The notes under the pieces are model-generated. The model was not told where the DNA came from, ran no database searches, and was given only the letters and a program-made list of their open reading frames with translations. A stretch of 16,586 bases of DNA. It comes from Candidatus Hermodarchaeota archaeon. Its GTDB lineage: Archaea > Asgardarchaeota > Lokiarchaeia > Sigyniarchaeales > SOKP01. The translations under genes were made by a program, and so were the position numbers. The stretch spans positions 1 to 16,586 of the forward strand of contig JBHLLG010000060.1 of NCBI GenBank assembly GCA_048885925.1, in the 5' to 3' direction. Of this stretch, positions 1,706 through 16,586 are shown piece after piece (within the stretch, counting starts at the first letter, position 1; every line of letters begins with the position of its first letter).

Positions 1706-2503
1706 TTGAAAATTTACAAAACAAGTTTTTCGGAAAAAGAATCTGATATTACGATTATATCTGATTCTAAAAATGCTATTTTAAGAGCGAAAGAATGTTT
1801 TTATAGACAAAGAAGAATTTTAGAAGAATATATAGCAAAAGATACACATTTTCTTAATTCATTTTCTCCTGTTAAGGTAAATACTAATTTTAGAATAATT
1901 AATATTATGGCTAAAGTAGCAGAAATGTGCAATGTTGGTCCAATGGCTTCTGTAGCGGGAACATTTGCAGATTTAATGCTTGAGAGAATGAAAATTAAAA
2001 ACTTGAATCAAAACTCTGAGTCTTCAACTTGTAAAATAGCTTTAGTTGAAAATGGAGGTGAAATTGCAATTGATTCTGAGAAATCAATGAAAATTGCTTT
2101 ATATGCAGGTAAAAATGAATTAAATCTAAATCTTGGATTTCTAATAAAAAAAGAAGATTCTCCAATAGGTATTGGGACGAGTTCTGCAACAATAGGTCAT
2201 GCAATTAGTTTTGGGCAAGCAGATGCAGTAACAATTTTCGCGAAAAATGCAGCATTAGCAGATGCAGCTGCAACGAAAATATGTAACTTAGTTAAAGGAA
2301 AAGATATAGAAAAATCGATAAAGAGAGGTTTAGATGCTGTAGATGATATTGACGACTTAATAGGCGCATTAATTGCTCGTAAGGATAAAGTAGGGCGAAC
2401 TGGAAAAATACCTCAATTATTTAAGATAGAAGGAGCAAAAAATAAAATAATAACAGGAAAAGTTGAAGATATATTTATTGATGATTACAAAATTTTTAAA
2501 TAA
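1706..2503 (+). CDS. UPF0280 / ApbE-like family protein
   Basis: Motifs VGPMASVAG, VENGGEIA and GIGTSSATIGHAISFGQADAVTIFAKNAALADAAAT are characteristic of archaeal UPF0280 (COG2122). TTG start. Overlaps the convergent gene by 8 nt. Confidence 0.9.
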   Translation: MKIYKTSFSEKESDITIISDSKNAILRAKECFYRQRRILEEYIAKDTHFLNSFSPVKVNTNFRIINIMAKVAEMCNVGPMASVAGTFADLMLERMKIKNLNQNSESSTCKIALVENGGEIAIDSEKSMKIALYAGKNELNLNLGFLIKKEDSPIGIGTSSATIGHAISFGQADAVTIFAKNAALADAAATKICNLVKGKDIEKSIKRGLDAVDDIDDLIGALIARKDKVGRTGKIPQLFKIEGAKNKIITGKVEDIFIDDYKIFK

Positions 2504-4781
2504 TCCAAAATAATGGAGTTTCTTTTTTGTTTATCGATTTGGCAGAACAAATTTTATTTATATAAGTAAGATTATAATACTGTTCTAATTCCTCATCTGT
2601 CAATTGCCCAAATAGTTCGAAACCTCTATTAATGATATAATCATCAGCAAAAATAATGTATACATCTGTATTGTATTCTTTTTTAATTTCCTTTAAAATA
2701 TTTATCCCACTTTCATTCAAATGATTATTTGGAGGAAATAAATCAATTTGATATTTCAAAAAATAGAAATTATGATCATAAAGGAGAGCTTCTGTTTTGT
2801 TATCAAATGGATATCCATAATACTTGAACGCGTGACTCCAACCAACTTCAGTAATTATAACATTCTTATGAGAGGTTCTATTTGAATACCATTGAATAGC
2901 ACTAACGTCTCTTCCTTTCATAATGAAAATGTCAAATGCCTTAGATTCATAGAAATATGTAGTTAATAATGAAAAGATCAAAATAAATAAAATTGCATAT
3001 TTCTTTTGAAATGTTCTTATTGAATTCAATTTAATAAGTTTATAAATGTATGCTATAAACCCAATTACTAGAATAGGAGGGATTAAATAGAGTATTCTTT
3101 GCCAAATCATATTACTTAATGCTAAAATATTAAATATAAAACCAATACCTAAAAATAATAATAAGCCAAGCCCCCAAATAAATAATGCCTTTCCTCTTCG
3201 CTTTTTTTGAAATAATAATAAACCCCAAATTGCGAAACTACTAATCATAATTATTTCAATCACATAAAAAATATTTATTAGTTCTAAATTAATCCATGCA
3301 AAGTTTATTATTAAAAGAATAATAAGTACTATGATTAAAATACTTGAAATAAACGGAATTATTATCTTATCTTCTACTTTTTTATAGAAAATGTCTGTTT
3401 CTCCTTTAATTACCTTATTAAATTTTCCTTTTGTAAAATTTATTGATTTTTGAATTTTCCAAATTATGATAAATCCTATTAAACCTCCGCCTAATGCTCC
3501 TAAAATAAGAAAAGACCATGGAATATCTAAAGATATAAAGAACCAATAATGCCCTTCTCCTATACCAAAGATAGAGAAAATTATAAATAATAATAATAAT
3601 CCACATAACAGGATAAAATCAAACCCTCTCTTATAATCTCTTAAGAAATAAATTAAAAATAACCATAGAAATGATATTAGAAAAAATAATGTTGTAACAT
3701 CATGTGTAAGGACTGAACTAATGAAAATAACTGTAATTAAAGCATAATCAAAAAACATATTTGAGAAGATTAATTTTTTCGTTGGACGTTCAAATTTGGT
3801 AAAATCTTGGATCCTAACATAAAAAAGGAAAAAAATCGTTAAACATTTGATTAAAGCAGAACCAGAGGGCCAATATTGAATCATCATTGTGGAAAAACCT
3901 AACGAAGAAAATTCTAAAAGAAATACTCCAAATAATGCCAAATTCTGATTTTTAAAGACTCTCATACAAATATTATAAAAAATTAGCCCTGAGACAAAAA
4001 AAGTGTAGAATACAAAATACCTTGGGATTAATGTATGATTTGCTCCAGAAAAGAAGTTAATTACAGCCCCAAATATGTTTAATCCCATAGTTCCGTGATA
4101 ACCTTCTAACGGTAAAATCTTAATATCAGTAATAATCCTACTATTAAGAATGTGAAGCCACGGGTCAGTTCCGATAAAATAATCCGCTTTAACAATATTT
4201 AAAATACAGATTAAGAATAAAAAGATAATTAATAATAGTGCATTAAAAGGAATTATTTTTTTGAAGTATTTCAATAAAGATAATAGGTTTAAGTTTTCTG
4301 TTTTTATAGTTGAAATATCTTTAGATCTTAAAAATGTATACGAATTTTTTTTTAATTCAAAAATTGAAATATAACCAATTATAAAAAAATACATAATTAA
4401 CAATGAAAAAAAGAAGAAAAACTTTGTTAATAGGAAGCCAAGAATATATCCAATATATCCCATCAGAATATAAAAAGCAGAATTTACAACTATTGTTAAA
4501 CTTAGTTTCTCTAAATAATTGAATGATTTCTCTTTAAAGATTATGAAAAAGATTGGGTAAGTAGGTAAAAATAAAATAGTAAAGACAGTACAAATAGAAA
4601 TTATAGTATGAAATAGAGAATTTAAAATCAAATTTTCTGAAAATCCCAAAATAATATCCAAATTAATAATTTTAAAGAAAATAAATAGAAGTGATATGAA
4701 GGAAACTAAAACAACAATTAAATTAATTCTTAAATTCAGAAAAAGCAAAATATTTTTGAATTTCCCTTTAACAACTTCCAT
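2496..4781 (-). CDS. Polytopic membrane protein, probable GT-C-fold glycosyltransferase
   Basis: 761 aa with well over 10 hydrophobic segments. GTDPWLH in the loop after a TM segment resembles the DPxxH loop motif of STT3/AglB-like GT-C enzymes. Soluble C-terminal domain starts AIQWYSNRT...VIITE. No WWDxG motif. Confidence 0.6.
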   Translation of the reverse strand: MEVVKGKFKNILLFLNLRINLIVVLVSFISLLFIFFKIINLDIILGFSENLILNSLFHTIISICTVFTILFLPTYPIFFIIFKEKSFNYLEKLSLTIVVNSAFYILMGYIGYILGFLLTKFFFFFSLLIMYFFIIGYISIFELKKNSYTFLRSKDISTIKTENLNLLSLLKYFKKIIPFNALLLIIFLFLICILNIVKADYFIGTDPWLHILNSRIITDIKILPLEGYHGTMGLNIFGAVINFFSGANHTLIPRYFVFYTFFVSGLIFYNICMRVFKNQNLALFGVFLLEFSSLGFSTMMIQYWPSGSALIKCLTIFFLFYVRIQDFTKFERPTKKLIFSNMFFDYALITVIFISSVLTHDVTTLFFLISFLWLFLIYFLRDYKRGFDFILLCGLLLLFIIFSIFGIGEGHYWFFISLDIPWSFLILGALGGGLIGFIIIWKIQKSINFTKGKFNKVIKGETDIFYKKVEDKIIIPFISSILIIVLIILLIINFAWINLELINIFYVIEIIMISSFAIWGLLLFQKKRRGKALFIWGLGLLLFLGIGFIFNILALSNMIWQRILYLIPPILVIGFIAYIYKLIKLNSIRTFQKKYAILFILIFSLLTTYFYESKAFDIFIMKGRDVSAIQWYSNRTSHKNVIITEVGWSHAFKYYGYPFDNKTEALLYDHNFYFLKYQIDLFPPNNHLNESGINILKEIKKEYNTDVYIIFADDYIINRGFELFGQLTDEELEQYYNLTYINKICSAKSINKKETPLFWII

Positions 4782-4794
4782 AATTGAATTCTTC

Positions 4795-5775
4795 TTATTT
4801 TATCTTTAAATTAACGTTATATTTATTAGAATACCATTTAAAATAATCCCTTAATCCTTGTTCTTGATTGTATTTTGGTTGAAATTGTAAAATTTCTTTT
4901 GCTTTTGAAATATCAGCATAACTGTGGATAATGTCTCCGGGTCTCGGAGGATCAAAGATAATTTTCAATTCTTCCTTATTTGTGATTTCTAACATTAATT
5001 TTGCAAGTTCTATTAGTTTAATTGGAGACCCAGCACCAATATTTAAAATCTCTCCAGATATCTTCTGTTCAGCAGCTAATAAATTTGCTTGAACAACATC
5101 TTTTATATATGTAAAGTCTCTTGATTGTTCTCCATCACCAAATATTATTAAATTTTTATTTTCTATTAATCGACCCAACCAAATTGCAATTACTCCACTA
5201 TAGGGAGAATCCTTCTGTCTTGGTCCAAAAACGTTAAAATAACGTAATGAAATGGTATTTATACCATATACTTGATAAAAAACCTGCATATATGCTTCGC
5301 ATGTTAGTTTTGACACACCATAAGGAGAAATTGGAATTCTTGGCATGCTTTCTTCTTTAGGTAATGTTGGAGTATCTCCATATACGGCAGAACTTGAAGC
5401 AAAAATAATTTTCTCAACATCTCTTTTTCTAACTGCATTTAACAAATTTAAAGTACCATTAATATTAACATCATTACATGACTCTGGCATTTTTATTGAT
5501 TGAGGTACACTAGTAAATGCTGCTTCATGAAAAATTATATCAATATCTTCGAAAATTTCAAATAAAAAATTAAAATCCCTTATATCGCCTTTATGGAATT
5601 GGAATTTTTTATTATTTAAGGCTTCTTCAATATTTTCTAGTCGTCCATTAAAGAAATTGTCAATTCCAATTACTTCTACCCCTAATTCAAGTAATTGATC
5701 AGCTAAATTACTACCGATAAATCCCGCAACTCCAGTTACTAATATCCTTTTATCTGCAATTTTCGATATAGACAT
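4795..5775 (-). CDS. NAD-dependent NDP-sugar epimerase/dehydratase (extended SDR; UDP-Glc/GlcNAc 4-epimerase-like)
   Basis: GVAGFIG Rossmann motif, FASSSAVYG, catalytic YGVSK (YxxxK), LRYFNVFGPRQ, GDGEQSRDFTY, PRPGDI. Confidence 0.93.
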   Translation of the reverse strand: MSISKIADKRILVTGVAGFIGSNLADQLLELGVEVIGIDNFFNGRLENIEEALNNKKFQFHKGDIRDFNFLFEIFEDIDIIFHEAAFTSVPQSIKMPESCNDVNINGTLNLLNAVRKRDVEKIIFASSSAVYGDTPTLPKEESMPRIPISPYGVSKLTCEAYMQVFYQVYGINTISLRYFNVFGPRQKDSPYSGVIAIWLGRLIENKNLIIFGDGEQSRDFTYIKDVVQANLLAAEQKISGEILNIGAGSPIKLIELAKLMLEITNKEELKIIFDPPRPGDIIHSYADISKAKEILQFQPKYNQEQGLRDYFKWYSNKYNVNLKIK

Positions 5776-5869: not shown

Positions 5870-6189
5870 CTAACGTAATTCTATCAAATATTTCATAAAA
5901 TCTTCCTTATATTTTTTTGGAAGTTTATCTGGTCTTTTTAAACTGGGATAGGCTTGAAGATTTGTTTTTATTAGGATTAAAATCGGATCTTGTTGGCTTT
6001 TAATATTGTCAAGGGATTTTAACAATTTTTCTTTAGTCTCAATATTAATACTTAATTTATAATTTGTTGCTAATGCTATATCCGTAACTTTAAAATAGAA
6101 GAATTTGTAAATTGTCCTCTTCTAGATTCATGAGCTTCATTATCAATAATTATATAACCGAAATTTGGTAGTGAAACTGAGTTAATATA
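5870..6189 (-). pseudogene. Truncated, frameshifted C-terminal remnant of a ThDP-dependent phosphonopyruvate decarboxylase (Ppd/AepY-like)
   Basis: Frame A (6189-6076): YINSVSLPNFGYIIIDNEAHESRRGQFTNSSILKLRI*. Frame B (6088-5870): VTDIALATNYKLSINIETKEKLLKSLDNIKSQQDPILILIKTNLQAYPSLKRPDKLPKKYKEDFMKYLIELR*. Joined, these match my recalled Ppd C-terminal consensus (NxxHIVxxNxAH[DE]SxGGQxT...FxxIAxAxGY...GPxLIxI...LxRPxxxPxxxKxxFM). No start codon and no GDG motif; in-frame TAA at 6219-6217. Confidence 0.78.
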
Positions 6190-6190
6190 T

Positions 6191-6209
6191 AAAAAAGAAG
6201 AAAAAAAAG
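6191..6209 (-). terminator. Oligo-U archaeal-type terminator after the MFS gene
   Basis: Minus strand CTTTTTTTTCTTCTTTTTT begins ~17 nt after the MFS stop codon. Confidence 0.45.
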
Positions 6210-6226
6210 ATAATAATTATAGAATT

Positions 6227-7546
6227 TTAAATATATTCCTTTCTCTGCGGTATACTTTTCCAATCAAATAATAAAATTAACCCTCCGATTAACGCTACTA
6301 CTATCCAGAGACCAAAAGCGGCTCCAGAACCAGCTGTATAAATAAGAGCTCCAGAGGTAAAAGTTGTAATAGCCGCTCCGATATATCCAATTCCATCAAT
6401 AAATCCTGTAGCTGCAGATGATGCCTTTCTTGTACCAAATTCCATGGGTATCGTAGAAACTAAAAGAGCATGTGGTCCAAAATTTAAAAAGCCAATTAAC
6501 ATCAATACTGGAATTCCGAAAACCATATCAAGCGGAGGTAATAATGTATATATAAACAATGTCAATGCTAACCCAATAAAAAGAATACAAACTACAGGTA
6601 TTCTTCTTCTTTTTAAGAATTTATCTGAAACCCATGCAGCGACAATAACTCCAATTGTGCCCCCTATAGGGTAAAAAATGGACTTCCATGTACCAAAATA
6701 TGATGCGTCTGTTATTGCAGGACTTAATAGATATGGGAGCCAATCTGTTAACCCATATCTGACAATATTTAGACAAAATAACCCAAAAGCTGCAAAAAGA
6801 ACTGTTTTAGTTTTAATTACAGTATTAAAAGTATACTTAAACCCTACAAATTCATCTGGGCGACAATCCCCCATAACTATTTTACCTTCGCATTCTTCTT
6901 CTAAAGTTGGTAAACCAACCTCTTCAGGAGCATTTCTGCTACGAGAATAGAAATGAAATGCCATTAGAAACATGATAATTCCTGGAATAATAAAAGAAAA
7001 ACGCCAATCTAAACTAAATGTATCGGTAATAACTATAGCAAGAAACCATGATAAAACTCCTCCCAGGAGATATGAAGTAGCAAGCCTACTAGACCATCTC
7101 CCTCTTTCTTCTGCTGGATGCCAATTAGCAATCGTTTTTACAGAAGGAGCCCAACCCATTGATTGAAAATAACCATTCAACCCCCAAAAAAGAAATGCAA
7201 CCCAAATAAAATCAAATGCAACTCCCATCAATAAATTCAAAGCGGCAGATACAATTAATCCTAGAGTAATAAAACGCCTAGCACCGACTTTATCACCTAA
7301 AAAACCGTTGAAGAATTGTCCAGCAGCATAAGCAATAAGAAAAATAGAACTAACAAGTCCCATTAAAGGTTCGGAATATATACCAAATTCACTCATTATG
7401 AAAGGTTTCGCTATTGCATAGTTATTACGTCCTATATAGTAGATCATATATGTTATCCAAACGGTAAAGAATATTCGCATCCGCCATGATTTAAATTGCT
7501 TTTTAACTTCAGTTTCATTAGTAATTGTTTCACTCATTTTTTTCAT
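6227..7546 (-). CDS. MFS transporter, organophosphate:Pi antiporter (OPA; GlpT/UhpT/UhpC-like) family
   Basis: About 12 TM segments. OPA-type motifs YYIGRNNY, GFLGDKVGAR, FQSMGWAP...WHPAEERG, RNAPEEVGLP, IVRYGLTDWLPYL, AWVSDK and AATGFIDGIGYIG. Confidence 0.9.
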   Translation of the reverse strand: MKKMSETITNETEVKKQFKSWRMRIFFTVWITYMIYYIGRNNYAIAKPFIMSEFGIYSEPLMGLVSSIFLIAYAAGQFFNGFLGDKVGARRFITLGLIVSAALNLLMGVAFDFIWVAFLFWGLNGYFQSMGWAPSVKTIANWHPAEERGRWSSRLATSYLLGGVLSWFLAIVITDTFSLDWRFSFIIPGIIMFLMAFHFYSRSRNAPEEVGLPTLEEECEGKIVMGDCRPDEFVGFKYTFNTVIKTKTVLFAAFGLFCLNIVRYGLTDWLPYLLSPAITDASYFGTWKSIFYPIGGTIGVIVAAWVSDKFLKRRRIPVVCILFIGLALTLFIYTLLPPLDMVFGIPVLMLIGFLNFGPHALLVSTIPMEFGTRKASSAATGFIDGIGYIGAAITTFTSGALIYTAGSGAAFGLWIVVALIGGLILLFDWKSIPQRKEYI

Positions 7547-7560
7547 CCTTTAAAATTAAG

Positions 7561-8493
7561 CTATAATTTACCTTCTTTTATTAATTGTTTAGCGTATTCA
7601 TAATCTTGTTGGGTATCGATTTCTACCCATCCATGATTTACCTTTACAGCATGTATCGGATATCCTCTATCAATGAGTTCTTGAAGCATATCGGTAAGAT
7701 AGGCTTTCCGAATGGAAACAGCATCATGGAATCGTTGTCCTTCTGCAAATCGACATGTTTTATTTTCTTTTGCTCGATGGTAATTTCTTCGTAAGATTTC
7801 AGCACCTTTTTTAGTAAATTTCGCTACTCCAATAAATTCTCCATCAAACGCATCAGGATTGCAGAATTTTGAGATAAAAACAATTTTACCACCCTTTATT
7901 TTTACTAATTCTGCTTCATCTGTGGGATGTTCATCACGATTTTCATATCTAGCTTTCCAATTTGGTTCTACACAGATACATATATCATAGGGAGCATCCA
8001 AAATCCTTTGAAAAATATCTTTTGAGAAAACACTATCTGCATAAGTAAAAACGAATCCATCTTCCATGGCTTCTTCTGCATAAAAAAGTGATTCTAAAAT
8101 GTTATTTTCTGCGTATTCATCATTATCATAGTATTTAATATTAGAAATTGTAAATTTGTCTTTCTGATAACCTCGTACAACTACAATATCTTCCAGTCCC
8201 ACTTCTCGAAGTACATCAATTTCCCGTTCAATAATAGATTTACCTTCACTAATTTCTAATAGTGGTTTTGGTAGATATTTGGTCATATCCTTTAATCGAG
8301 ATCCCATTCCGGCTGCAATAATAATTACTTTCATTTCTTTTGCTTCCTTAATTTGTTCATATCGTCTTACAATTCGCTCTAGAAGTGAAATATGCTCATT
8401 ATATTTTTCAGATGTTTTTTTATATCCGATCTTTTTAACACTCTCATAAATCTTCTTAATTTCTTCAAGATCTGAATATTTTTGTTCCGGCAT
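7561..8493 (-). CDS. LicC/PntC-like (phosphocholine/phosphonate) cytidylyltransferase with 53-aa N-terminal extension
   Basis: IIIAAGMGSRL...LPKPLL nucleotidyltransferase signature, VVVRGYQ, NDEYAENNILESL, YADSVF, GEFIGVAKF, AYLTDMLQEL, WVEIDTQQDY. Catalytic domain starts at Met54 (8334). Confidence 0.85.
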   Translation of the reverse strand: MPEQKYSDLEEIKKIYESVKKIGYKKTSEKYNEHISLLERIVRRYEQIKEAKEMKVIIIAAGMGSRLKDMTKYLPKPLLEISEGKSIIEREIDVLREVGLEDIVVVRGYQKDKFTISNIKYYDNDEYAENNILESLFYAEEAMEDGFVFTYADSVFSKDIFQRILDAPYDICICVEPNWKARYENRDEHPTDEAELVKIKGGKIVFISKFCNPDAFDGEFIGVAKFTKKGAEILRRNYHRAKENKTCRFAEGQRFHDAVSIRKAYLTDMLQELIDRGYPIHAVKVNHGWVEIDTQQDYEYAKQLIKEGKL

Positions 8494-8536
8494 ATTATTA
8501 TAGAAAATGTTTATTAACTTTAGAAGTACATTTACC

Positions 8537-8544
8537 TATATAAA
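8537..8544 (-). promoter_or_regulatory. Candidate archaeal TATA box (TTTATATA) with purine-rich BRE-like upstream bases, for the cytidylyltransferase-MFS unit
   Basis: Minus strand CCTAAAAG-TTTATATA-GG, ~45 nt upstream of ATG 8493. The AT-rich background lowers specificity. Confidence 0.45.
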
Positions 8545-8772
8545 CTTTTAGGAATTTAACTTTTAAATGATTTATTAACTATATAGAAAAACTTGATAGT
8601 TTTTATAGGTAATTTAAATAAAATTTTATATAATTGTTAGGTATCCAAATTATTTTTCACCTAATCTTAAATATCTCTTCTTTCCTATTCATAATTCCAA
8701 CAAAACTCTCAGTAGAGTTAAAAGAAATATTTTAAAGAGTAATAAGATCTTTAAAAGAAAAACAAGAATTAA

Positions 8773-10278
8773 TTATTTGTAAAATCTCCTCATATGTTTG
8801 TTGAAATATAAAGGGAAATATAAAATCCATACTAAAATTTCTTTCCACCTTTGAAGTAGCTGATTTCTTCTAGCAATAATTGATTTTATGACAAATCTTA
8901 AATAACCAGTTTTATTCCACTGATGAGATACATCAGATAATTCAGTATTTAAAATTAGATAACTTTTTGAAATTTTTTTGTATCTTTTTATTAATTTTTT
9001 AAGGCCATAACCGGTAAGTCTATTTAAAAAAAGAATTGTTGTTACATTTCGTATTTTTTTAGGCTCTTTATTAATGATATCATCTTGAGTGATTATTTTA
9101 TTATATTTTTTGAGTTTTTCTCTTAGAAATTTCACTAGTTGAGGAGGAAATTGGTCAGGAATTAAAAATGTCTTAGATTTTAAATAACGTAATACACTAT
9201 GATTATATAATGAATCTAAAGTCAACTTAAAATTATCATAAGCTTTTGATTCAGAATCTAAATAAAATTGGTATAATTCATCAAAAATTTCTGGATTTTG
9301 ATCTTTCACATCCTTTTTTTCTAGTTTATCTTTAGCAAGGTTGAAAAGCGAGAATTTTCCATTATCATTAAGTAATTTCCATGTACCTTTTGTAATCATT
9401 GTCTTTTGAATTGATTGGAACATCAAATAACAATCTCCTCTCACTGTTCTTTCATTATTAACATCTATATTCTTCTCTATTAATGGTTTAAAAGAAATTG
9501 ATTGTCTATCATGGTTAGTTTCGATATTTAAATAATCTAAAATAGTTTCCAATATATCTATTAGATATACTCTTTTATAAATTGTTCTAGGTTTTACTTT
9601 TGTTAAAATGGGCGGAATTCTTATGAATAAAGCAGGTTGCATTGATGATTGATGTATATCATCAAAGTGTAATAATTTAGTTTTTTGGTATAGATTTTTA
9701 TCATAATATCCATGATCAGAATTAAGAATAAATAGGGAATTATTCCAAAAATTATTTCTTTTCAAGAATCCAATTATCTTTCTTACATACAAATCAGCCT
9801 GGGGATCGCTAGGTCGAAAAAATATGAAAAATAGATTTTTTTCTTTAGAAGTAATGTTCTCCACTTTCTTAATAAAGAGATCATAAACCTCTTTCGCATC
9901 TAACCAATGATCTCCTTGATACATCTCTTCTCTATAATAAGGATTGAGAATATCTTGGAGAACAATTACTTGTTCTTTACCAAATATTATAGAATGAATA
10001 TTATAGCCCTCTTTTTTTAAAGGGTAAATATTATTATCTAATTCTAAACTTGGAAGGTTTTCAATTGAGCGATAATAATCCGGAAATACATTATAAGGAT
10101 ATTTCCCAGTTAAAAATGAAAGCACAGATAAATTTGTAGATGGGAATTGAGATACCGCATCTTTAAAGTAAAAACCGTCCTTCCCTTTTTCTAATTCTTT
10201 ATATATTGGAAGTAGACTATGCAGATCCGGTCGTTCATAATTACAAATTGAATCAGTTAGAATCCAAAAAATATTCAT
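8773..10278 (-). CDS. Alkaline phosphatase superfamily (sulfatase-like) hydrolase/transferase, Thr-nucleophile type
   Basis: NIFWILTDS (first metal Asp), FPSTNLSVLSFLTGKYP at the nucleophile position (no C/SxPxR), FILNSDHG, LIDILETILDYL, and sulfatase-like C-terminal WKL...LFNLAKDKLE. No signal peptide seen. Confidence 0.8.
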   Translation of the reverse strand: MNIFWILTDSICNYERPDLHSLLPIYKELEKGKDGFYFKDAVSQFPSTNLSVLSFLTGKYPYNVFPDYYRSIENLPSLELDNNIYPLKKEGYNIHSIIFGKEQVIVLQDILNPYYREEMYQGDHWLDAKEVYDLFIKKVENITSKEKNLFFIFFRPSDPQADLYVRKIIGFLKRNNFWNNSLFILNSDHGYYDKNLYQKTKLLHFDDIHQSSMQPALFIRIPPILTKVKPRTIYKRVYLIDILETILDYLNIETNHDRQSISFKPLIEKNIDVNNERTVRGDCYLMFQSIQKTMITKGTWKLLNDNGKFSLFNLAKDKLEKKDVKDQNPEIFDELYQFYLDSESKAYDNFKLTLDSLYNHSVLRYLKSKTFLIPDQFPPQLVKFLREKLKKYNKIITQDDIINKEPKKIRNVTTILFLNRLTGYGLKKLIKRYKKISKSYLILNTELSDVSHQWNKTGYLRFVIKSIIARRNQLLQRWKEILVWILYFPLYFNKHMRRFYK

Positions 10279-10283
10279 TTAAA

Positions 10284-10288
10284 CACCT
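10284..10288 (-). promoter_or_regulatory. Shine-Dalgarno-like AGGTG upstream of the sulfatase-like gene
   Basis: Minus strand AGGTG-TTTAA-ATG (start at 10278). Confidence 0.6.
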
Positions 10289-10319
10289 GTTTAATTTCTC
10301 AATAATTCCTTTTAGAATT

Positions 10320-11141
10320 TCATTCTTTTTCTTTCATGAACTTTTTTTTGTAATGCTTTAGAGCATCTTTATCAATACTCTTTGCTTTTAAAACCATAAA
10401 AGTTGAGAATACAAAAAGTAGAAAAACAACATAAAACATCATTAGTAATTCTAGTATCATAGCAATATTAAAATAGATGTACAATAAGAAACCAATTAAA
10501 AACATTGTAGTAATAATATGTGTGTGACTAAAAGCATTTACAAGGTTTATTGATATATTTTTTATTTTCTTGAAAAATGTTTTTTTCGGAGGACCTACTT
10601 CTTTATTCTCACTTTCATCTGGTATTTTGTTTTGTACTTGTCCTTTAGTAAATGCAATTATAGATATTTTACGAATAGTTCTTATGCCAATTAAGAAGAA
10701 AGTCGCTATTATTCCAAAAAATATGTATAAAAATTCAGAATTGATTCTAAAAATACTATATCCAAAGGCAAAGAAAAACCATCCCTGAAAGAACAAATGT
10801 CCGATTTCATCATAATATATACCTTGTAAAGAAGTTTGTTTTTTATATCTAGCAACTTCACCATCAACTTCATCTGACAAATAATAAATATATACTAAAA
10901 TAAATCCTAAGATAATAAAAATTTTATTCGTTATTGCTATTAACAATAATCCTATTAACCCAATTAAGGTTCCAGTGATTGTAATAGAATTTGCTGTTAT
11001 AGGAGTCTTAACCAGAATCCAAGTAATATATCTTGATAAAGTTGTGTAGATCCAATGCCACCAATCTTTCTTCTTTTTTCGCTTTTCAAGTTTTGTTCCT
11101 TGAATAATCTGCTTAAATTCTTTAAAGCTTTCTCTTGGCAT
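10320..11141 (-). CDS. CDP-alcohol phosphotransferase family protein
   Basis: ITANSIT motif and signature DEVDGEVARYKKQTSLQGIYYDEIGH (DxxDGxxAR...GxxxDxxxD with the last Asp as His); about 6 TM segments. ATG at 11141 preferred over the track's TTG at 11207, which would leave only 15 nt before the divergent gene. Confidence 0.9.
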   Translation of the reverse strand: MPRESFKEFKQIIQGTKLEKRKKKKDWWHWIYTTLSRYITWILVKTPITANSITITGTLIGLIGLLLIAITNKIFIILGFILVYIYYLSDEVDGEVARYKKQTSLQGIYYDEIGHLFFQGWFFFAFGYSIFRINSEFLYIFFGIIATFFLIGIRTIRKISIIAFTKGQVQNKIPDESENKEVGPPKKTFFKKIKNISINLVNAFSHTHIITTMFLIGFLLYIYFNIAMILELLMMFYVVFLLFVFSTFMVLKAKSIDKDALKHYKKKFMKEKE

Positions 11142-11222
11142 ATTGCATAAAAAATAGTTTTTAAATGTATAAAAATTAGAAACCTTATAATCTTTATTTA
11201 AAACCAAAAGGAACGTTGAAAA

Positions 11223-11921
11223 TTGAACTTTATTACTAAAATTATTAAAAAAATTACGAAATATTATCTTTCTTATTTCAATTATATTATACCCTATTTT
11301 CCTAAATTCATTTGGAAAAGAATAAAACTTCTTTCAGTTATGAATTATTGGAGAATAGAATATAGATTAGGAGGAAAAGACAAATATAATCAAGACCCAT
11401 CTCTAAAAATCATTTTTGAGCGATATTGTAAACATTTACAAATAGATAAGAATACATTTAGGGGAAAAATTGTTGTTGATGTAGGATGTGGACCTCGAGG
11501 ATCCCTTCATTATTTTAATGCTAAATTAAAAATCGGAGTTGATCCTTTTGCGAATTTCTATCGAAAATATTTTAATGTTGATAAACAAAACATGATATAT
11601 GTTCACGCTAGTGCTGAAAAAATGCCCATAAATAATGAATTTACGGATTATGTTATTTCACATAATGCTTTAGATCATGTTGATAATTTCAAACAATCTA
11701 TAAAAGAAATCCATAGAATTCTTAAACCAAATGGAATAATAATTTTCCAACTTAACTTTAATAAAAAGCCTACGATTAACGAACCAATTGTGTTGAATAA
11801 GGCAATAGTAAAAAACACCTTAGAGCCTTATTTCGAATATAAAATAGAAAATGAAATCCTTACGCAAGAATATAGACATTTTGGTTCATATATTTTAATT
11901 AAAGGTAAGAAAATTAATTAA
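11223..11921 (+). CDS. Class I SAM-dependent methyltransferase
   Basis: Motif I VVDVGCGPRG, IGVDP, ASAEKMPI..EFTDYVIS.NALDHV, EIHRILKPNG. Exact start uncertain (TTG). Confidence 0.88.
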   Translation: MNFITKIIKKITKYYLSYFNYIIPYFPKFIWKRIKLLSVMNYWRIEYRLGGKDKYNQDPSLKIIFERYCKHLQIDKNTFRGKIVVDVGCGPRGSLHYFNAKLKIGVDPFANFYRKYFNVDKQNMIYVHASAEKMPINNEFTDYVISHNALDHVDNFKQSIKEIHRILKPNGIIIFQLNFNKKPTINEPIVLNKAIVKNTLEPYFEYKIENEILTQEYRHFGSYILIKGKKIN

Positions 11922-12077
11922 AACTAAAAATCAAAGTAATTGAAATTTATTCAATATATATTTTATTTAAAAAATGATCTTAGCTTAAGATTTCTTAATT
12001 TCTTCAAATCATAAATTTAATTTGAGACTCACTATTTTTTTTTTTAATTTATAATAATTTATAACTTGATTCTTAAC

Positions 12078-13721
12078 ATGGAAGATTCTGGTGATGAACT
12101 GCAGTTTTCTATAGGTGAGACAGAATATAGAAAATTGGCGACAAATACTTTTTACTCGTTCATGTTTAATTATAGTTCCTTATTTTTTACATTTATATAT
12201 TCATTTCTTTTAGCGCGTCTATTTGTGGATGTAATTTGGGGATATCTCATATTATCTACATCATATATAATGATTATAGTAATAATTTCGTCGTTATTAC
12301 CACCAGGTCTCAATTTTGCCTTGAATTATTATATTCCTAGACATTTTGCATTAAATGAAAAATCTAAAATAAAATCGCTAATTCGAAATTCAGTCATAAT
12401 AAAATTGGTATTTTTAATTCCAATTTTTATTATCAGTATTCTGATTTTTCAATTAATTTCTATCTATCTTGTAGATACATTGGTTTCCCTTTTTTTTATC
12501 ATGTCTCCCTGTATCTTAATTAATAGCTTAAATTACATTTTAGAAGCAATAAATCGTGGCTTTAATAAATTTCATTATAATTTCTGGTTTTTGATGGTGA
12601 AAAATGTAATTCATATTGTACCATTAGTTATTTTTTTTGTTTGGGATATTATGGTTGAGATTGAAATTGTAGCTTGGATCATATTATTTTCAAGTTTAAT
12701 TCCGTTCATTTTGAATTCTGTTCTTGTTTTTATTATGGTCAATAAAATTAAATCACTTGAAAGTATGACCAATTCATTTAAAAAAGATTTATCTAAAACA
12801 TTCAAGTACGGCAGTTATATGGGGGTCAATGATCTTATCGAAAGACTATGGAAAGAATCCCAACTTCAAGGAATTGGCTATATCGTGTCTCCAGATTTTG
12901 TCACTGGATTTAATATCTCAATAAATTATCAGAAATTAAATGATTATATTGTTTATTCTTTTCATTTTCCATTATTAACTTCTTTTACAACTTTAGACGC
13001 AAGAGAAAGTTATGAGCAAATAGATATGATTTATAGAATAGCTTATAAAATAACTTTATTTGTACTTTTAATCATTTCAGGAATTCTATATTTTTGTGTT
13101 GAGTTTGTTTTAGATTTTGTATTCCTTGAGGATCGCTTAATATATTCAAATTTACTTCGATTAATGGTGCTTGCTTCTATTTTTAGACTTTTAGCTGCAT
13201 TTCTACAAAGTCTATTAAATGCTCAACATAAAGTAAAATTAACATTAATTTTAAGAATAATTTATACTTCAATGAGTATTCCTTTATTTTTTATAGGGCT
13301 TTTCTTTTATGGTGTTGAAGGTGCAATATTATATGGATTAATTATCGGAAATATTCTCTCAATGGGGGTTCAAATTTTTGCTACTTATAAATATGGTAAT
13401 ATTCATTTAAATCTTAAAAAAGTTATTATCCAATACATAGCGTTTTTCCTTCCGTTGGTTATTACGATTTTTTTAAAAGAATTTATATTTGAAGACATTA
13501 GTTTTCGGATTATTCAGAATTTAGGTCTATTACTCTTTAAAAAATTCGACTTTCTTTCTCTTAGCGCATTTCTTATTCTTTTTACATTAATAAATTTAGT
13601 TCTTAAAGTGGTTACCACTTCTGATATTATATATTTTAAATCACTTTTAAATAAAGAAAGATTTTTTGATAAAATTCTTATTAAAAGTTTAAATTTGTTA
13701 AAAAAGTTTTCAAGGGACTAA
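12078..13721 (+). CDS. Oligosaccharide flippase (Wzx/MOP superfamily)
   Basis: About 14 TM segments. N-terminal LATNTFYSF...LLARLF...WGYL...PPGLNFALNYYIP is typical of Wzx-like exporters. ATG at 12078; the track's TTG at 12066 is also possible. Confidence 0.82.
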   Translation: MEDSGDELQFSIGETEYRKLATNTFYSFMFNYSSLFFTFIYSFLLARLFVDVIWGYLILSTSYIMIIVIISSLLPPGLNFALNYYIPRHFALNEKSKIKSLIRNSVIIKLVFLIPIFIISILIFQLISIYLVDTLVSLFFIMSPCILINSLNYILEAINRGFNKFHYNFWFLMVKNVIHIVPLVIFFVWDIMVEIEIVAWIILFSSLIPFILNSVLVFIMVNKIKSLESMTNSFKKDLSKTFKYGSYMGVNDLIERLWKESQLQGIGYIVSPDFVTGFNISINYQKLNDYIVYSFHFPLLTSFTTLDARESYEQIDMIYRIAYKITLFVLLIISGILYFCVEFVLDFVFLEDRLIYSNLLRLMVLASIFRLLAAFLQSLLNAQHKVKLTLILRIIYTSMSIPLFFIGLFFYGVEGAILYGLIIGNILSMGVQIFATYKYGNIHLNLKKVIIQYIAFFLPLVITIFLKEFIFEDISFRIIQNLGLLLFKKFDFLSLSAFLILFTLINLVLKVVTTSDIIYFKSLLNKERFFDKILIKSLNLLKKFSRD

Positions 13722-13741: not shown

Positions 13742-14935
13742 TTATTTGTATAATTGATCAAAATTTTTCATATTTTTTTCCCATAAGAAGTCACTTTTAA
13801 TTTTTTCTAAGCTGTTCTTTAAAAATTTATTCCTTAGGTTTTCATCTTTTAGAAGTTTTTTAATGGATCTTGCATAACAAATATAATTTTCAGTCTCACA
13901 CAATAGTCCATTTTCTAAATGTTTTATTAAATCTCTTGTACCGGCTATATCACTAGTTATTATTGGAACTTGAAATATCATTGCTTCCATTAAAACTCCA
14001 GCTAATCCTTCACCTCTACTAGGAAGAAAGAATATATCAGCACATCTATAAAAATTATGTACATCGAGTCTATTTCCTACGGACAAAATTTTTTGATTTA
14101 AACCATATTTCAAACTCATTTGGATTAAATTTTTCCGCTCTGGACCGTTTCCTACTAAAATGAACTTAACCTTTTGGCTTTTTAATAAATTCGCAGTTTT
14201 TAATATTAAATCAATCCCTTTTCTATTATTAAGAAGTCCAACAAATAAAATTATTTTTTCATCTTCATTTATTTTATAAATTTTTTTTATATCTTTATCA
14301 GAAGGTTTTGTTATTAAATCGATTCCTGTTGGTGTAACTCTAATCTTTCTTTTTGGGACTCCTGCTTTATGAGCATATTTAATCATGGACGTGCCATAAA
14401 TACTTATGTAATTAGATGCTAAAAAAACAAGTTTACCTAATGTTTTAAAGAATATTTTAAATAAGATGTCTAATACAGATGAAAATTTAAAAGAATATGC
14501 TGGAATGGTATCCATTGTGAGAATTAGTCTTTTCTTTTTAAAGAATAATAGTTTTAACATACACAGAATAAATGTATTTGGGTAGAATGGAACCCAAACA
14601 TGAAAAATCTCATTATTTTTTAATATTTTCCAGCATTTTTTAAAATATTCTAAATTAATGGGTATTGGCCATGAAAAACCAGATGATTTCGTCCATACTG
14701 GGTAAGTTATTAGATTTATCCCATCAAAATCATCGTAAAATCTTGTAATCTCTTTTAATATTTCATTTTTTTTCCTTGGAGTAAAAATTGATACAATAAA
14801 TTCTTTCTTTTTCAATTTATGCGTTATAAAGGAGATTGGTCTTTTAATGTTAATCCCAGGGTTTATAAAACATATTCGTCTATAATTTTTACCCATAAAT
14901 AGGGAAAGGAATAATGAATTTTTTAAATTACTCAT
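13742..14935 (-). CDS. Glycosyltransferase family 4 (GT-B, retaining)
   Basis: VTPTGID, ILFVGLLNNRKGIDLIL, LVGNGPE, DIFFLPSRGEGLAGVLMEAM (ExxxxxxxE), NGLL. Confidence 0.92.
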   Translation of the reverse strand: MSNLKNSLFLSLFMGKNYRRICFINPGINIKRPISFITHKLKKKEFIVSIFTPRKKNEILKEITRFYDDFDGINLITYPVWTKSSGFSWPIPINLEYFKKCWKILKNNEIFHVWVPFYPNTFILCMLKLLFFKKKRLILTMDTIPAYSFKFSSVLDILFKIFFKTLGKLVFLASNYISIYGTSMIKYAHKAGVPKRKIRVTPTGIDLITKPSDKDIKKIYKINEDEKIILFVGLLNNRKGIDLILKTANLLKSQKVKFILVGNGPERKNLIQMSLKYGLNQKILSVGNRLDVHNFYRCADIFFLPSRGEGLAGVLMEAMIFQVPIITSDIAGTRDLIKHLENGLLCETENYICYARSIKKLLKDENLRNKFLKNSLEKIKSDFLWEKNMKNFDQLYK

Positions 14936-15261
14936 TTAAAAATTTTTTTTGTATTAATCTGGAATTGAGTAAATCTATAAAAGAAATGAATTAATCGAGT
15001 ATAAAAGATATTTTCTTATAGAAAAAAATTAATATTATTCAAAAATAGTAAAAAACTGTTATATAAATATTTAATTAATAGAATAAACTTATTTTTTATA
15101 TTACATAATATATTAACACATGCCAAAAAATATTGTTAAAATTTGAAAAAAATTAACATTAAATCTAACTTTTTATAGAACTTGGAGCATTTACGTTGAA
15201 GATATCAATACAACCTAAAGAGATAAATTCTACAATTAAAAGAAAATCTATTTATACAACT

Positions 15262-16029
15262 ATGAAATTCCTTTTTCCTAATTTAAAAGTTGGAGTTGTA
15301 ATGCCTGCTTACAATGAAGAATTAAACATTGGACAAACCCTCGAACAAATTCCTGAGAATATTTCTGAAATTTTTGATGTAATTGTTGTTGATGATGGTT
15401 CAGTTGATAAAACTAGCGATATTGTTAAAAATTATAATGTAACTCTTATTAAACATTCTCAAAATAGAGGGTATGGTGCTGCTGTAAGAACAGGATTAGA
15501 CTATTGTAAAAAAAAAGAATATGATGTAGTAATTATTCTTGATACTGATGGTCAGCATTCTCCAAAATATATTAAGGAATTTATAAAACCAATTGTTGAA
15601 GATGACATAGATTTTGTTATTGGAAATCGATATAAATATTACTATGATATGATAGGGTTTAAGAAATTATGTGTAAAACTTATGACTGCTTTATATATGG
15701 TATTTCTTCAAAAAAAAATAATGGATCCAACAAATGGATATCGTTCATTATCTTCAAAAGTAGTAAATGATTTAGAACTCGAATCCGAGTATTCAATTTC
15801 ACAAGAGATGCTTTTTAAAGTTATTCCCTATTATAAATATAAAGAAATTCCAATAAAAGTTTATCAAAGAAACCATGGCCAATCTTTTATCAAAATCAAA
15901 AATTATTTGCTTAAAATAATATTACTATTTCTAAAGTTTTATATCTTCCCAAAAGTCAGAAAAATTACTCATAAAATTTTACCTGAAGAATTTAGGACAA
16001 GAGTTAAATCTTATTATCTAAAAACTTAA
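15262..16029 (+). CDS. Glycosyltransferase family 2, DPM1-like (polyprenol-phosphate glycosyltransferase-like)
   Basis: VVMPAYNEE, VIVVDDGSVD, HSQNRGYGAA, LDTDGQH, DFVIGNR, DPTNGYR, EIPI...R..GQS. ATG at 15262 preferred; the track extends to TTG 15196. Confidence 0.92.
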   Translation: MKFLFPNLKVGVVMPAYNEELNIGQTLEQIPENISEIFDVIVVDDGSVDKTSDIVKNYNVTLIKHSQNRGYGAAVRTGLDYCKKKEYDVVIILDTDGQHSPKYIKEFIKPIVEDDIDFVIGNRYKYYYDMIGFKKLCVKLMTALYMVFLQKKIMDPTNGYRSLSSKVVNDLELESEYSISQEMLFKVIPYYKYKEIPIKVYQRNHGQSFIKIKNYLLKIILLFLKFYIFPKVRKITHKILPEEFRTRVKSYYLKT

Positions 16030-16196: not shown

Positions 16197-16586
16197 ATGA
16201 CCAAATATCAATATAATTCTGAAGAAATTATTAATAAAGCTGATAAACTATATTCAAATAAGTATTTATTTGAGATAAAAAAAGTTCAAAATAATGCACC
16301 TTTATTCTCTGTAATAATTCCACTTTATAATGAAGAAAATACGATTAAAAATGTTATTCAAAGAATACCTAACCATCAGCAGTATGAAATCATTATAGTA
16401 GATGATGGCTCAACTGATAATAGTATCAAGAAAGTTCAAGAAATTAATAACAGAGCGATTAAAATAATTAAACATGAAAAAAATCAAGGTTATGGCGCAG
16501 CAATATTGACTGGTTTTGAACATGCTATTGGAGATATTTTAATCACTCTAGATTCTGATGGACAACATAATCCTGAAGAAATTCCC
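16197..16586 (+). CDS. Glycosyltransferase family 2, DPM1-like; 3' end runs off the window
   Basis: Hand-translated, not in the track: MTKYQYNSEE...LFSVIIPLYNEE...EIIIVDDGSTD...HEKNQGYGAAILTGFEHAIGDILITLDSDGQHNPEEIP; 130 codons open to the edge. Confidence 0.92.
   Translation, partial: MTKYQYNSEEIINKADKLYSNKYLFEIKKVQNNAPLFSVIIPLYNEENTIKNVIQRIPNHQQYEIIIVDDGSTDNSIKKVQEINNRAIKIIKHEKNQGYGAAILTGFEHAIGDILITLDSDGQHNPEEIP

Follow-up and report, generated by a model that had tools for sequence, protein, structure and literature searches.

Loss of a predicted phosphonate synthesis cassette beside a retained transporter-cytidylyltransferase pair in an Asgard archaeon

We analyzed a 16,586-nucleotide (nt) stretch of DNA from Candidatus Hermodarchaeota archaeon (Asgardarchaeota, Lokiarchaeia, Sigyniarchaeales, SOKP01; assembly GCA_048885925.1, contig JBHLLG010000060.1), hereafter the window, which is the entire 16.6-kb contig C60 of a 3.9-Mb, 95% complete draft genome (G000 in our set). 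The window represents an island of genes for decorating surface glycans and lipids, from which a four-gene cassette predicted to make 2-hydroxyethylphosphonate (HEP) has been lost. A remnant of ppd, the gene for phosphonopyruvate decarboxylase, marks the place of the loss, and beside it an intact pair of genes is retained, encoding a transporter of the major facilitator superfamily (MFS) and a LicC/PntC-like cytidylyltransferase (NTPlic). The cassette is missing from the same place in three further genomes of the genus. The retained genes may bring a ready-made phosphonate into the cell envelope.

The synthesis cassette of relatives and its scar in the window

Genes were called as open reading frames (ORFs) of the window, and the encoded proteins were then scanned with family profiles. 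The minus strand carries, in order of descending coordinates, the genes for a CDP-alcohol phosphotransferase-like membrane protein (CDPOH; 10320..11207), a sulfatase-like enzyme of the alkaline phosphatase superfamily (SULF; 8773..10278), the 310-amino acid (aa) NTPlic (7561..8493), and the MFS transporter, of the OPA family (6227..7546), followed by the stretch with the ppd remnant, a NAD-dependent sugar epimerase/dehydratase (4795..5775; PF01370, E = 2.8e-65) that is the conserved right-hand neighbor of the cassette slot, and a gene for a 761-aa protein. The gap between the CDPOH and SULF genes is 41 nt (10279-10319) and that between the NTPlic and MFS genes is 14 nt (7547-7560), whereas the 450 nt between MFS and the epimerase hold no long ORF. 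The original prediction, made from the letters of the window, had described this co-oriented series with its two short gaps and the remnant, and every detail that we checked was correct.

We searched 60 related genomes with NTPlic and compared the matching loci. The whole locus is syntenic with those of same-genus genomes. In its intact form, SULF, NTPlic, and MFS are followed by a four-gene cassette, the epimerase, and the 761-aa gene; this order was seen in six genomes (G028, G022, G004, G016, G001, and G017), with the epimerase absent in G004 and G017 and adjoining ppd in the other four. The first cassette gene encodes a 569-aa phosphoenolpyruvate (PEP) mutase (PepM) fused to a C-terminal NTP-transferase domain (TIGR02320, 352 bits; cut-off, 319.55). 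It is followed by a 378-aa iron alcohol dehydrogenase (Fe-ADH; 197 bits with the phosphonate-associated model TIGR03405, below its cut-off of 423.7), a 238-aa NTP-transferase (NTP238), and a 378-aa phosphonopyruvate decarboxylase (Ppd; 437 bits; cut-off, 312.5). In the cassette of G054, PepM is fused instead to a TagD-like cytidylyltransferase. Because the cassette of the relatives contains Fe-ADH and no transaminase, its predicted product is HEP and not 2-aminoethylphosphonate (AEP), the phosphonate named in the original prediction as a substrate of PntC enzymes. A dehydrogenase route to HEP makes up the first steps of several known pathways, according to the passages cited here (PMC8942020). 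The NTP-transferase domain fused to PepM (L025 7403-9112, minus strand, and orthologs) lacks the G-x-G-x-R-L signature, having AAG..PEF with a 5-residue gap in all five sequences compared. This domain may be non-catalytic, leaving the 238-aa enzyme as the activating enzyme of the cassette.

An oriented DNA alignment with the intact locus of G028 shows that approximately 4.5 kb of the cassette is gone between MFS and the epimerase of the window. About 50 nt of the MFS-pepM spacer persists on the left side of the deletion junction (6177..6226, minus strand). It is followed by the 3' remnant of ppd (5870..6176, minus strand), which begins, by DNA alignment, at approximately 6176, corresponding to codon ~277, and retains codons ~277-378 with the stop codon; a single 1-nt deletion, seen in the alignment with G001, shifts its frame. 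The two resulting frames, 5870-6121 and 6076-6216, match positions 291-360 and 258-293, respectively, of the 360 positions of the ppd model TIGR03297 (E = 3.7e-8 and 5.2e-4; 29-33 bits), and a tblastn search of the window with the Ppd of G028 matched residues 281-302 and 308-377. The ppd remnant noticed in the window is thus genuine and frameshifted, and the suspected decay of local de novo synthesis turns out, by synteny, to be a clean deletion of the PepM, Fe-ADH, NTP238, and Ppd genes. The junction is bridged by contigs from other studies (X3 record 12 covers 6138-6806, and X9 record 29 covers 6131-6424), and an X8 contig covers 4850-6181; therefore, the deletion is not an assembly artifact of this genome. 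Between the remnant and the ppd gene of G001, differences by codon position number 27, 13, and 32 (approximately 102 sites each), compared with 27, 12, and 30 between the intact genes of G028 and G001. These counts suggest that the scar is young and the deletion recent on the scale of species divergence.

Phosphonate synthesis is not encoded elsewhere in this draft genome, for which all the absences given here hold. There was no match to the PEP mutase model TIGR02320, which in a control exceeded its cut-off in one of 14 known genomes. No intact ppd was found over the cut-off, only the window remnant and a split pair on contig C18, which passes the cut-offs of the sulfopyruvate decarboxylase alpha and beta models instead (198 versus 148 bits and 243 versus 221.5 bits). 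This ComD/ComE-like pair (G000:C18 8915-9968; L006) has unrelated genes around it, among them two zinc alcohol dehydrogenases and a fragment of a PhpK-like radical SAM protein. Coenzyme M production would not be expected of this archaeon. The split pair is also present in G002, G031, and G049. The best match to the AEP transaminase model TIGR03301 scored 170 bits against a cut-off of 360.8, and the choline kinase family PF01633 (LicA) had no match. The supposition that pepM, an intact ppd, AEP transaminase, and choline kinase are all missing from the rest of the genome thus held in the profile searches. The best phosphonatase matches in the genome were far below the cut-off and PhnJ had no match, so that, with no AEP transaminase either, the known routes for catabolism of an imported phosphonate are not encoded. 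Nor did the genome contain a match to LicD (PF04991) or a TagF-like protein, which leaves SULF and CDPOH as the only candidate transferases.

Repeated loss of the cassette within the genus

The cassette is missing at this locus in four same-genus genomes, namely G000, G031, G002, and G196, none of which encodes PepM anywhere; no ppd over the cut-off was found either in the three searched for it (G000, G002, and G031). The scars differ. In G031, the spacer is followed by approximately eight pepM codons and ppd codons ~342-378, and G196 retains 46 nt of internal pepM sequence plus the final ~24 codons of ppd, whereas in G002, MFS directly adjoins the 761-aa gene, with neither a remnant nor the epimerase. 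No scar of the four could have arisen from another simply by being extended. We built quick maximum-likelihood trees of MFS and of the 761-aa flank, with support from the Shimodaira-Hasegawa-like approximate likelihood ratio test (SH-aLRT). In these trees, G000 groups with G022 and G028 (SH-aLRT 99) or with G022 and G001 (100), and G002 groups with G017 (95 and 98). G031 groups with G028 (100 on the 761-aa flank; the MFS tree is unresolved), and for G196 the nearest relative by identity is G001 (94% for MFS and 90% for the 761-aa protein). Given that the scars are different and each lies nearest to cluster-bearing genomes, the cassette was probably lost four times independently in the genus.

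MFS is intact in all four cassette-less genomes. In G000, G002, and G196, so are NTPlic, SULF, and CDPOH; the contig of G031 ends inside NTPlic. For SULF, relative-rate tests are invalid because its tree differs from the flank trees.

The transporter-cytidylyltransferase pair as a separable module

NTPlic followed by MFS, adjacent and co-oriented, was found in 20 of the 20 loci with enough contig, intact and cassette-less alike, so that, together with the synteny within the genus, the gene cluster is conserved, as the original prediction implied. MFS could have come in as a replacement for the synthesis genes when these were lost. We rejected this possibility because MFS occupies the same place in seven intact same-genus loci (the six named above and, by coordinates, G030), as an established part of the intact cluster. 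A foreign origin of MFS, considered because G+C content rises from approximately 25% across the window to 32-35% across 6000-8500, was rejected as well, given that MFS is 85% identical at the DNA level to its counterpart in G028.

The pair and the cassette can be separated in either direction. The cassette is present without the pair in G012, G024, G046, and G053; thus, synthesis has activating enzymes of its own, and the pair is accessory to it. SULF adjoins the PepM cassette even where the pair is missing (in G012 and G024, where it abuts PepM). Conversely, in G049, the pair is accompanied by a Nudix hydrolase and a sulfatase-like gene approximately 305 kb away from the PepM cassette.

To assess this relationship more broadly, we surveyed 331 Asgard genomes that are at least 80% complete for NTPlic orthologs (E ≤ 1e-60) and for PEP mutase over the cut-off. 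NTPlic was detected in 27 genomes and PepM in 36; 15 encode both, 12 NTPlic only, and 21 PepM only, where the surveyed genomes are related to one another and the counts are descriptive, with no statistical test. One of the 12 pair-only genomes, G166, is doubtful, its contig being only 2.8 kb long. With 12 of the 27 pair-bearing genomes lacking PepM, the pair appears to be a module that is linked to PepM but separable from it. The anticorrelation of the pair and pepM that the original prediction led one to expect does not hold overall: the two are mostly found together in the genus of the window and are mutually exclusive only in two genera, g27 (three genomes with the pair only and seven with PepM only) and g48 (five and one, respectively).

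A distant genus without PepM has two further neighbors of the pair, a divergent NTP-transferase paralog of approximately 300 aa (five of five loci, L040 to L043 among them) and a Nudix hydrolase (two of five). In one of these loci (G111, L040 4768-11771), genes for a PhoU-like protein and an ABC permease are present as well, giving the pair a setting of phosphate homeostasis.

Cytidylyltransferase

In NTPlic, a helical extension of 53 aa at the N terminus precedes the catalytic domain; the protein scores over the cut-offs of PF12804 and PF00483. Its nucleotide-binding signature, AAGMGSRL (residues 59-66), contains the G-x-G-x-R-L motif, and G62 and R66 are invariant in 18 sequences. A sequence search against the PDB retrieved LicC (1jyk, E = 4.6e-17) ahead of PntC (6pd1, the Treponema denticola domain; 2.8e-8) and inositol-phosphate cytidylyltransferase (IPCT; 7.4e-6). 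With a profile of the NTPlic family, the order was the same (1.7e-22, 1.1e-14, and 2.6e-9). The predicted structure, with a predicted local distance difference test score (pLDDT) of 88.4, matched PntC (6pd2, 9.5e-17), LicC (4.8e-16), and IPCT (4jd0, 3.1e-15). By sequence, profile, and modeled fold alike, LicC and PntC are therefore the nearest solved relatives of NTPlic, ahead of IPCT, in agreement with the identity originally assigned to it. The model NF041135, for IPCT fused to di-myo-inositol-phosphate-phosphate synthase (DIPPS), gave only 49.9 and 31.3 bits, far from its cut-off of 580, and NTPlic is neither fused nor adjacent to CDPOH. Within these genomes, the nearest paralog of NTPlic is the domain fused to PepM (35-37% identity).

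In PntC, Glu104 and Glu196, and in LicC the smaller Asp105 and Asp192, face the amine of the substrate, as described in the cited part of the PntC study (Rice et al. 2019, PMC6697681). In an HMMER alignment with 6pd1, Tyr151 of NTPlic, invariant in 18 members, aligns with Glu104, and Asp153 aligns with Asp106. The alignment ends before Glu196, and that with LicC shifts by one residue between runs, so that only the PntC equivalence was used. Tyr151 could point, if weakly, to a head group without charge, as in HEP or a polyol.

The catalytic part of the gene has a history of its own. The segment 7620..8319 (minus strand), delimited by identities in 100-nt windows, is 77-88% identical to G049, which belongs to another family, and only 58-74% identical to the same-genus G028 and G022, whereas its flanks (the N-terminal extension and MFS) are 78-91% identical to G028 and G022. 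The same segment of approximately 700 bp is 85-98% identical between the window and the cassette-less G196 (L034 7246-7945), the flanks of which follow G001 at 88-97%. By these comparisons, the catalytic domain of NTPlic is a recombinant allele common to the window and G196, and it is the only foreign-like part of the high-G+C region. We denoted this allele class B (at least 77% protein identity). In the family of the window, it is present in G000, G196, and G221, all without PepM. The 17 other NTPlic carriers of the family include four without PepM; class B is thus found in none of the 13 PepM-positive carriers. In the other family, class B is native and coexists with PepM (G049 and G054). 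The association in the window's family is unexplained and involves small numbers of related genomes.

Transporter

MFS, the only OPA-type transporter of its genome, scores over the cut-off of MFS_1 (E = 1.1e-45). The OPA models are its top matches, all below their cut-offs: TIGR00881 (229.5 bits; cut-off, 407.75), UhpC (202.6; 564), and GlpT (183.5; 632.55). Arg45 and Arg269, the phosphate-binding arginines of Escherichia coli GlpT, are invariant across seven archaeal orthologs. Lys80 and His165, residues of the GlpT substrate site, are replaced by Gln and Tyr, respectively, in all seven archaeal sequences, and Tyr266 is replaced by Asn. The cited part of a recent study gives a general account of the phosphate-binding residues of the OPA family (PMC8316502). 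It also describes AepP of Pseudomonas putida, an OPA-family permease shown genetically to take up AEP (Murphy et al. 2021, PMC8316502). MFS resembles AepP, as far as the published description goes, in that the phosphate-binding residues are kept and those for the glycerol moiety are lost (PMC8316502). AepP differs in that it is encoded with the catabolic phnWAY or phnWX genes and feeds mineralization (PMC8316502, same passages), whereas the partner of MFS is an activating enzyme.

Candidate transferases

SULF matches PF00884 with 35 bits, over its C-terminal part only, and PDB sulfatases with E-values from 8e-10 to 4e-3; it has no signal peptide. D9, S47-T48, and D188-H189 are invariant in nine orthologs, and D9 and D188-H189 correspond to metal-site residues. 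There is no C/S-x-P-x-R motif; the aligned stretch, S47-T48-N-L-S, has neither Pro nor Arg. Thr48 may occupy the position of the formylglycine precursor (Cys or Ser in sulfatases), an equivalence that is tentative, the N-terminal alignment score of -1.3 not being significant. The predicted structure, with a mean pLDDT of 52.9 from a nine-row alignment, is too uncertain to be of use. SULF is a candidate transferase or esterase for an activated phosph(on)o group.

CDPOH barely exceeds the cut-off of PF01066 (23.2 versus 22 bits) and scores 46 bits with the archaetidylinositol-phosphate synthase model (cut-off, 180). Its ORF runs from TTG 11207, and the alignment of orthologs points to ATG 11141 as the likely true start. 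The CDP-alcohol signature D-x2-D-G-x2-A-R-x8-G-x3-D-x3-D is kept at seven of eight positions (DxxDGxxARx8Gx3Dx3H), the fourth Asp being replaced by His137 in six of six orthologs; in the alignment with AF2299 (PDB 4o6m, E = 2.5e-7), His137 is likewise aligned to the last signature Asp. This substitution may reflect a different donor, perhaps a CMP-phosphonate, or an inactive enzyme. CDPOH is missing from the loci of G049, G054, G212, G221, and G111.

The genes for CDPOH and SULF are parted from NTPlic and MFS by a 279-nt AT-rich spacer (8494-8772), so that the four genes probably form two transcription units. In most relatives, a gene for a GT4 glycosyltransferase is located between CDPOH and SULF; it is missing from this position in the window.

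Proposed function and alternatives

We tentatively favor, as a possibility that falls somewhat short of probable, a function in which the module scavenges HEP, or another phosphonate that is likewise uncharged, from the sediment and imports it, activates it with cytidine monophosphate (CMP), and attaches it to the envelope. The OPA-family antiporter would move internal phosphate out and an external phosph(on)o-alcohol in, and the adjacent LicC/PntC-like enzyme would join the imported compound to CMP directly. Because such a cargo already carries phosphorus, no kinase would be needed; the family scans found no kinase among the window proteins, as had been stated from the sequence. SULF and/or CDPOH would then transfer the phosph(on)o group to an envelope glycan or an archaeal lipid. 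The position of the pair inside an HEP cluster, together with the shared SULF partner, makes a HEP-like phosphonate the first-choice cargo. We infer the transport direction, the cargo, the CMP activation, and the acceptor from gene content and sequence comparison. A further-reaching and rather doubtful extension is a make-or-take phosphonate economy of Loki-type Asgard archaea, in which the cassette would be repeatedly discarded in favor of scavenged HEP, and class B, tuned to the imported cargo, would spread by recombination.

Several observations weigh against this function. The sequence of an antiporter does not reveal in which direction it works. IPCT of Thermotoga follows LicC and PntC by fold at a small margin, and the genome encodes inositol phosphate synthesis. 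NTPlic lacks the amine-contacting acid of PntC; Tyr151 in its place argues against AEP or phosphocholine and does not separate HEP from a phosphate ester. Intact neighbors of a young scar in a single genome do not by themselves show selection, and relative-rate counts for MFS are mixed (28:12 against G028, and 18:20, 18:15, 40:29, and 8:11 in other triplets). Finally, a gene for a TagF-like CDP-glycerol glycerophosphotransferase (E ~1e-77) directly adjoins the pair in the PepM-less G212 (L036 12083-13303) and G221 (L035 3949-5241) of genus g27, in both loci scanned, with no sulfatase-like gene nearby; such a neighbor and a GlpT-like transporter would fit a phosphate ester, such as glycerol phosphate.

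The alternative that survives best, one we regard as somewhat unlikely, builds on this last point: the cargo would be glycerol phosphate or another polyol or alcohol phosphate, and the pair a general phospho-decoration module to which the loss of PepM is irrelevant. Besides the TagF-like genes directly flanking the pair, this is favored by the best models of the transporter, which describe OPA members for phosphate esters, the cargo usually associated with this family, by the 12 of 27 pair genomes without PepM (five of them from one distant genus), and by Tyr151 in the place of the amine-binding acid of PntC and LicC. However, the pair is present in 15 of the 36 PepM-positive genomes and only 12 of the 295 PepM-negative ones, and nine same-genus loci hold it between SULF and the PepM cassette or its empty slot (the tenth, in G031, ends inside NTPlic), while in G054 it abuts the cassette. 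Moreover, the substrate-site residues Lys80 and His165 of GlpT are not kept, this genome encodes no TagF-like protein, and the nearest NTPlic paralog is the PepM-fused domain.

It is quite unlikely, in our estimate, that the downstream genes are a relic, left without substrate by a recent deletion and simply not yet broken. The youth of the scar is compatible with a relic, as are the 94% identity of the G196 MFS to that of the intact G001, by which that loss would also be recent, and the 28:12 count, with more changes on the MFS branch of the window. Most of the relative-rate counts are even, however, and four different deletions have left MFS intact in each case and NTPlic, SULF, and CDPOH intact in the three loci whose contigs reach that far. 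The pair is also kept intact by lineages without PepM in two other genera (three genomes in g27 and five in g48), and a fresh catalytic-domain allele has recombined into two cassette-less genomes without disruption.

The remaining alternative, that NTPlic activates a compound made by the cell, for instance inositol-1-phosphate in a CDP-inositol route, with the antiporter exporting the product or balancing phosphate, is very unlikely: IPCT structures rank fourth and tenth by fold, the best CDPOH family models are inositol-phosphate synthases, and the genome encodes an inositol-phosphate synthase, but that gene lies on another contig without neighbors of the module type, the IPCT/DIPPS and archaetidylinositol-phosphate synthase models fall far short of their cut-offs, NTPlic is never fused to CDPOH and has the SULF gene between them, CDPOH is missing from five of the loci, and the constant transporter partner (20 of 20 loci) would not be explained by an endogenous substrate.

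Relationship to known pathways

Uptake and CMP activation of a HEP-like phosphonate would be a variant of two known bacterial pathways. The Pnt phosphonyl-tailoring pathway of bacteria runs from Ppm through Ppd and AEPT to PntC, and, like the locus described here, includes a LicC-family cytidylyltransferase beside phosphonate synthesis genes in a cell-surface glycan locus (Rice et al. 2019, PMC6697681, in the part cited). PntC is also the best structural (6pd2) and the second-best sequence match of NTPlic. The Pnt pathway differs in that the genome of the window lacks Ppm, Ppd, and AEPT, the cassette of relatives has an Fe-ADH, as in the HEP route, and no transaminase, the acid facing the AEP amine is a Tyr in NTPlic, the host is an archaeon, and a transporter is the fixed partner of NTPlic; the words transporter, sulfatase, and CDP-alcohol are absent from the Pnt paper (PMC6697681). 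In the lic pathway, as summarized in the same part, phosphocholine decoration relies on the importer LicB, the kinase LicA, the cytidylyltransferase LicC, and the transferase LicD (PMC6697681). Import, activation with cytidine triphosphate, and transfer to a surface glycan are shared with the proposed module, and LicC (1jyk) is the best sequence match of NTPlic; the differences are the lack of LicA and LicD in the genome of the window, an OPA antiporter for phosphorylated or phosphonylated cargo, and transferases of other families.

The early fosfomycin pathway comprises Fom1 (a cytidylyltransferase-PepM fusion), Fom2 (Ppd), and FomC (Fe-ADH), with transient CMP-HEP. The cassette of relatives is similar in having PepM fused to a nucleotidyltransferase, together with Ppd and Fe-ADH. 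Unlike that pathway, no Fom3, Fom4, or FomD-type genes were seen in the loci, the context is a glycan locus, and the cassette is lost in the window. In Nitrosopumilus maritimus, Metcalf and coworkers reportedly described, in 2012, a gene cluster for methylphosphonate that includes sulfatase-like and nucleotidyltransferase genes and has HEP as an intermediate. The sulfatase-like enzyme and the nucleotidyltransferases are said to attach the phosphonate to a polymer. This cluster differs in that the loci studied here contain no MpnS, the phylum is a different one, and the synthesis genes of the window are deleted. The methylphosphonate product of Nitrosopumilus maritimus is mentioned in the passages cited above (PMC8942020).

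In a literature search, we found no paper linking phosphonate genes with Asgard archaea among the matches listed, in line with the original impression that the combination had not been described in this group, and none that describes bacteria or archaea salvaging phosphonates to decorate their surfaces. What is new, in addition to the host lineage, is the fixed OPA importer that makes a kinase unnecessary, the make-or-take distribution, the recurrent loss marked by scars, and the mobile catalytic-domain allele.

Other genes of the locus

The flippase and glycosyltransferase setting recognized at the outset was recovered in full by the family scans. It comprises a Wzx-like flippase (12066..13721, plus strand), a GT4 glycosyltransferase (13742..14935, minus strand), two GT2 glycosyltransferases (15196..16029 and 16197..16586, both plus strand, the second cut by the contig end), the epimerase, and a divergent class I S-adenosylmethionine-dependent methyltransferase (11223..11921, plus strand; PF08241, E = 1.4e-15). 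The methyltransferase had been counted as part of the phosphonate system. We rejected it as a module member because it is not conserved, with a match in one of 12 related loci (G012, 41% identity); it belongs to the variable glycan locus.

The 761-aa protein (2496..4781, minus strand) belongs to no Pfam family and had one sub-threshold NCBIfam match; it is always located at the edge of the cassette slot, with homologs in nine other same-genus loci (59-76% identity). At the start of the contig, an Arf/Roc/Ras-type small GTPase domain (2..1048, minus strand; PF00025, E = 3.8e-22) is part of a protein that reaches 612-647 aa in relatives, a eukaryote-like signature protein typical of Asgard genomes. 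An Asgard origin had been surmised from the letters alone; besides this GTPase, it agrees with the closest named homologs of NTPlic, which are labeled Promethearchaeota, Promethearchaeum syntrophicum, and Ca. Lokiarchaeum ossiferum.

Implications

Much of the organic phosphorus in the ocean is in the form of phosphonates, and bacteria are known to use them chiefly to decorate their surfaces. To our knowledge, the archaea that make, trade, and reuse phosphonates are poorly known. If HEP or a similar phosphonate is indeed the cargo, the retained pair and its partners would constitute a kinase-free salvage route that brings a C-P compound into the cell envelope, and the envelope chemistry of the closest prokaryotic relatives of eukaryotes would depend on neighbors that produce the compound. 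The presence of NTPlic orthologs in the cultured Promethearchaeum syntrophicum and Ca. Lokiarchaeum ossiferum makes this prediction testable at the bench. Whatever the cargo, the recurrent, scar-marked loss of one module and the retention of the other stand.

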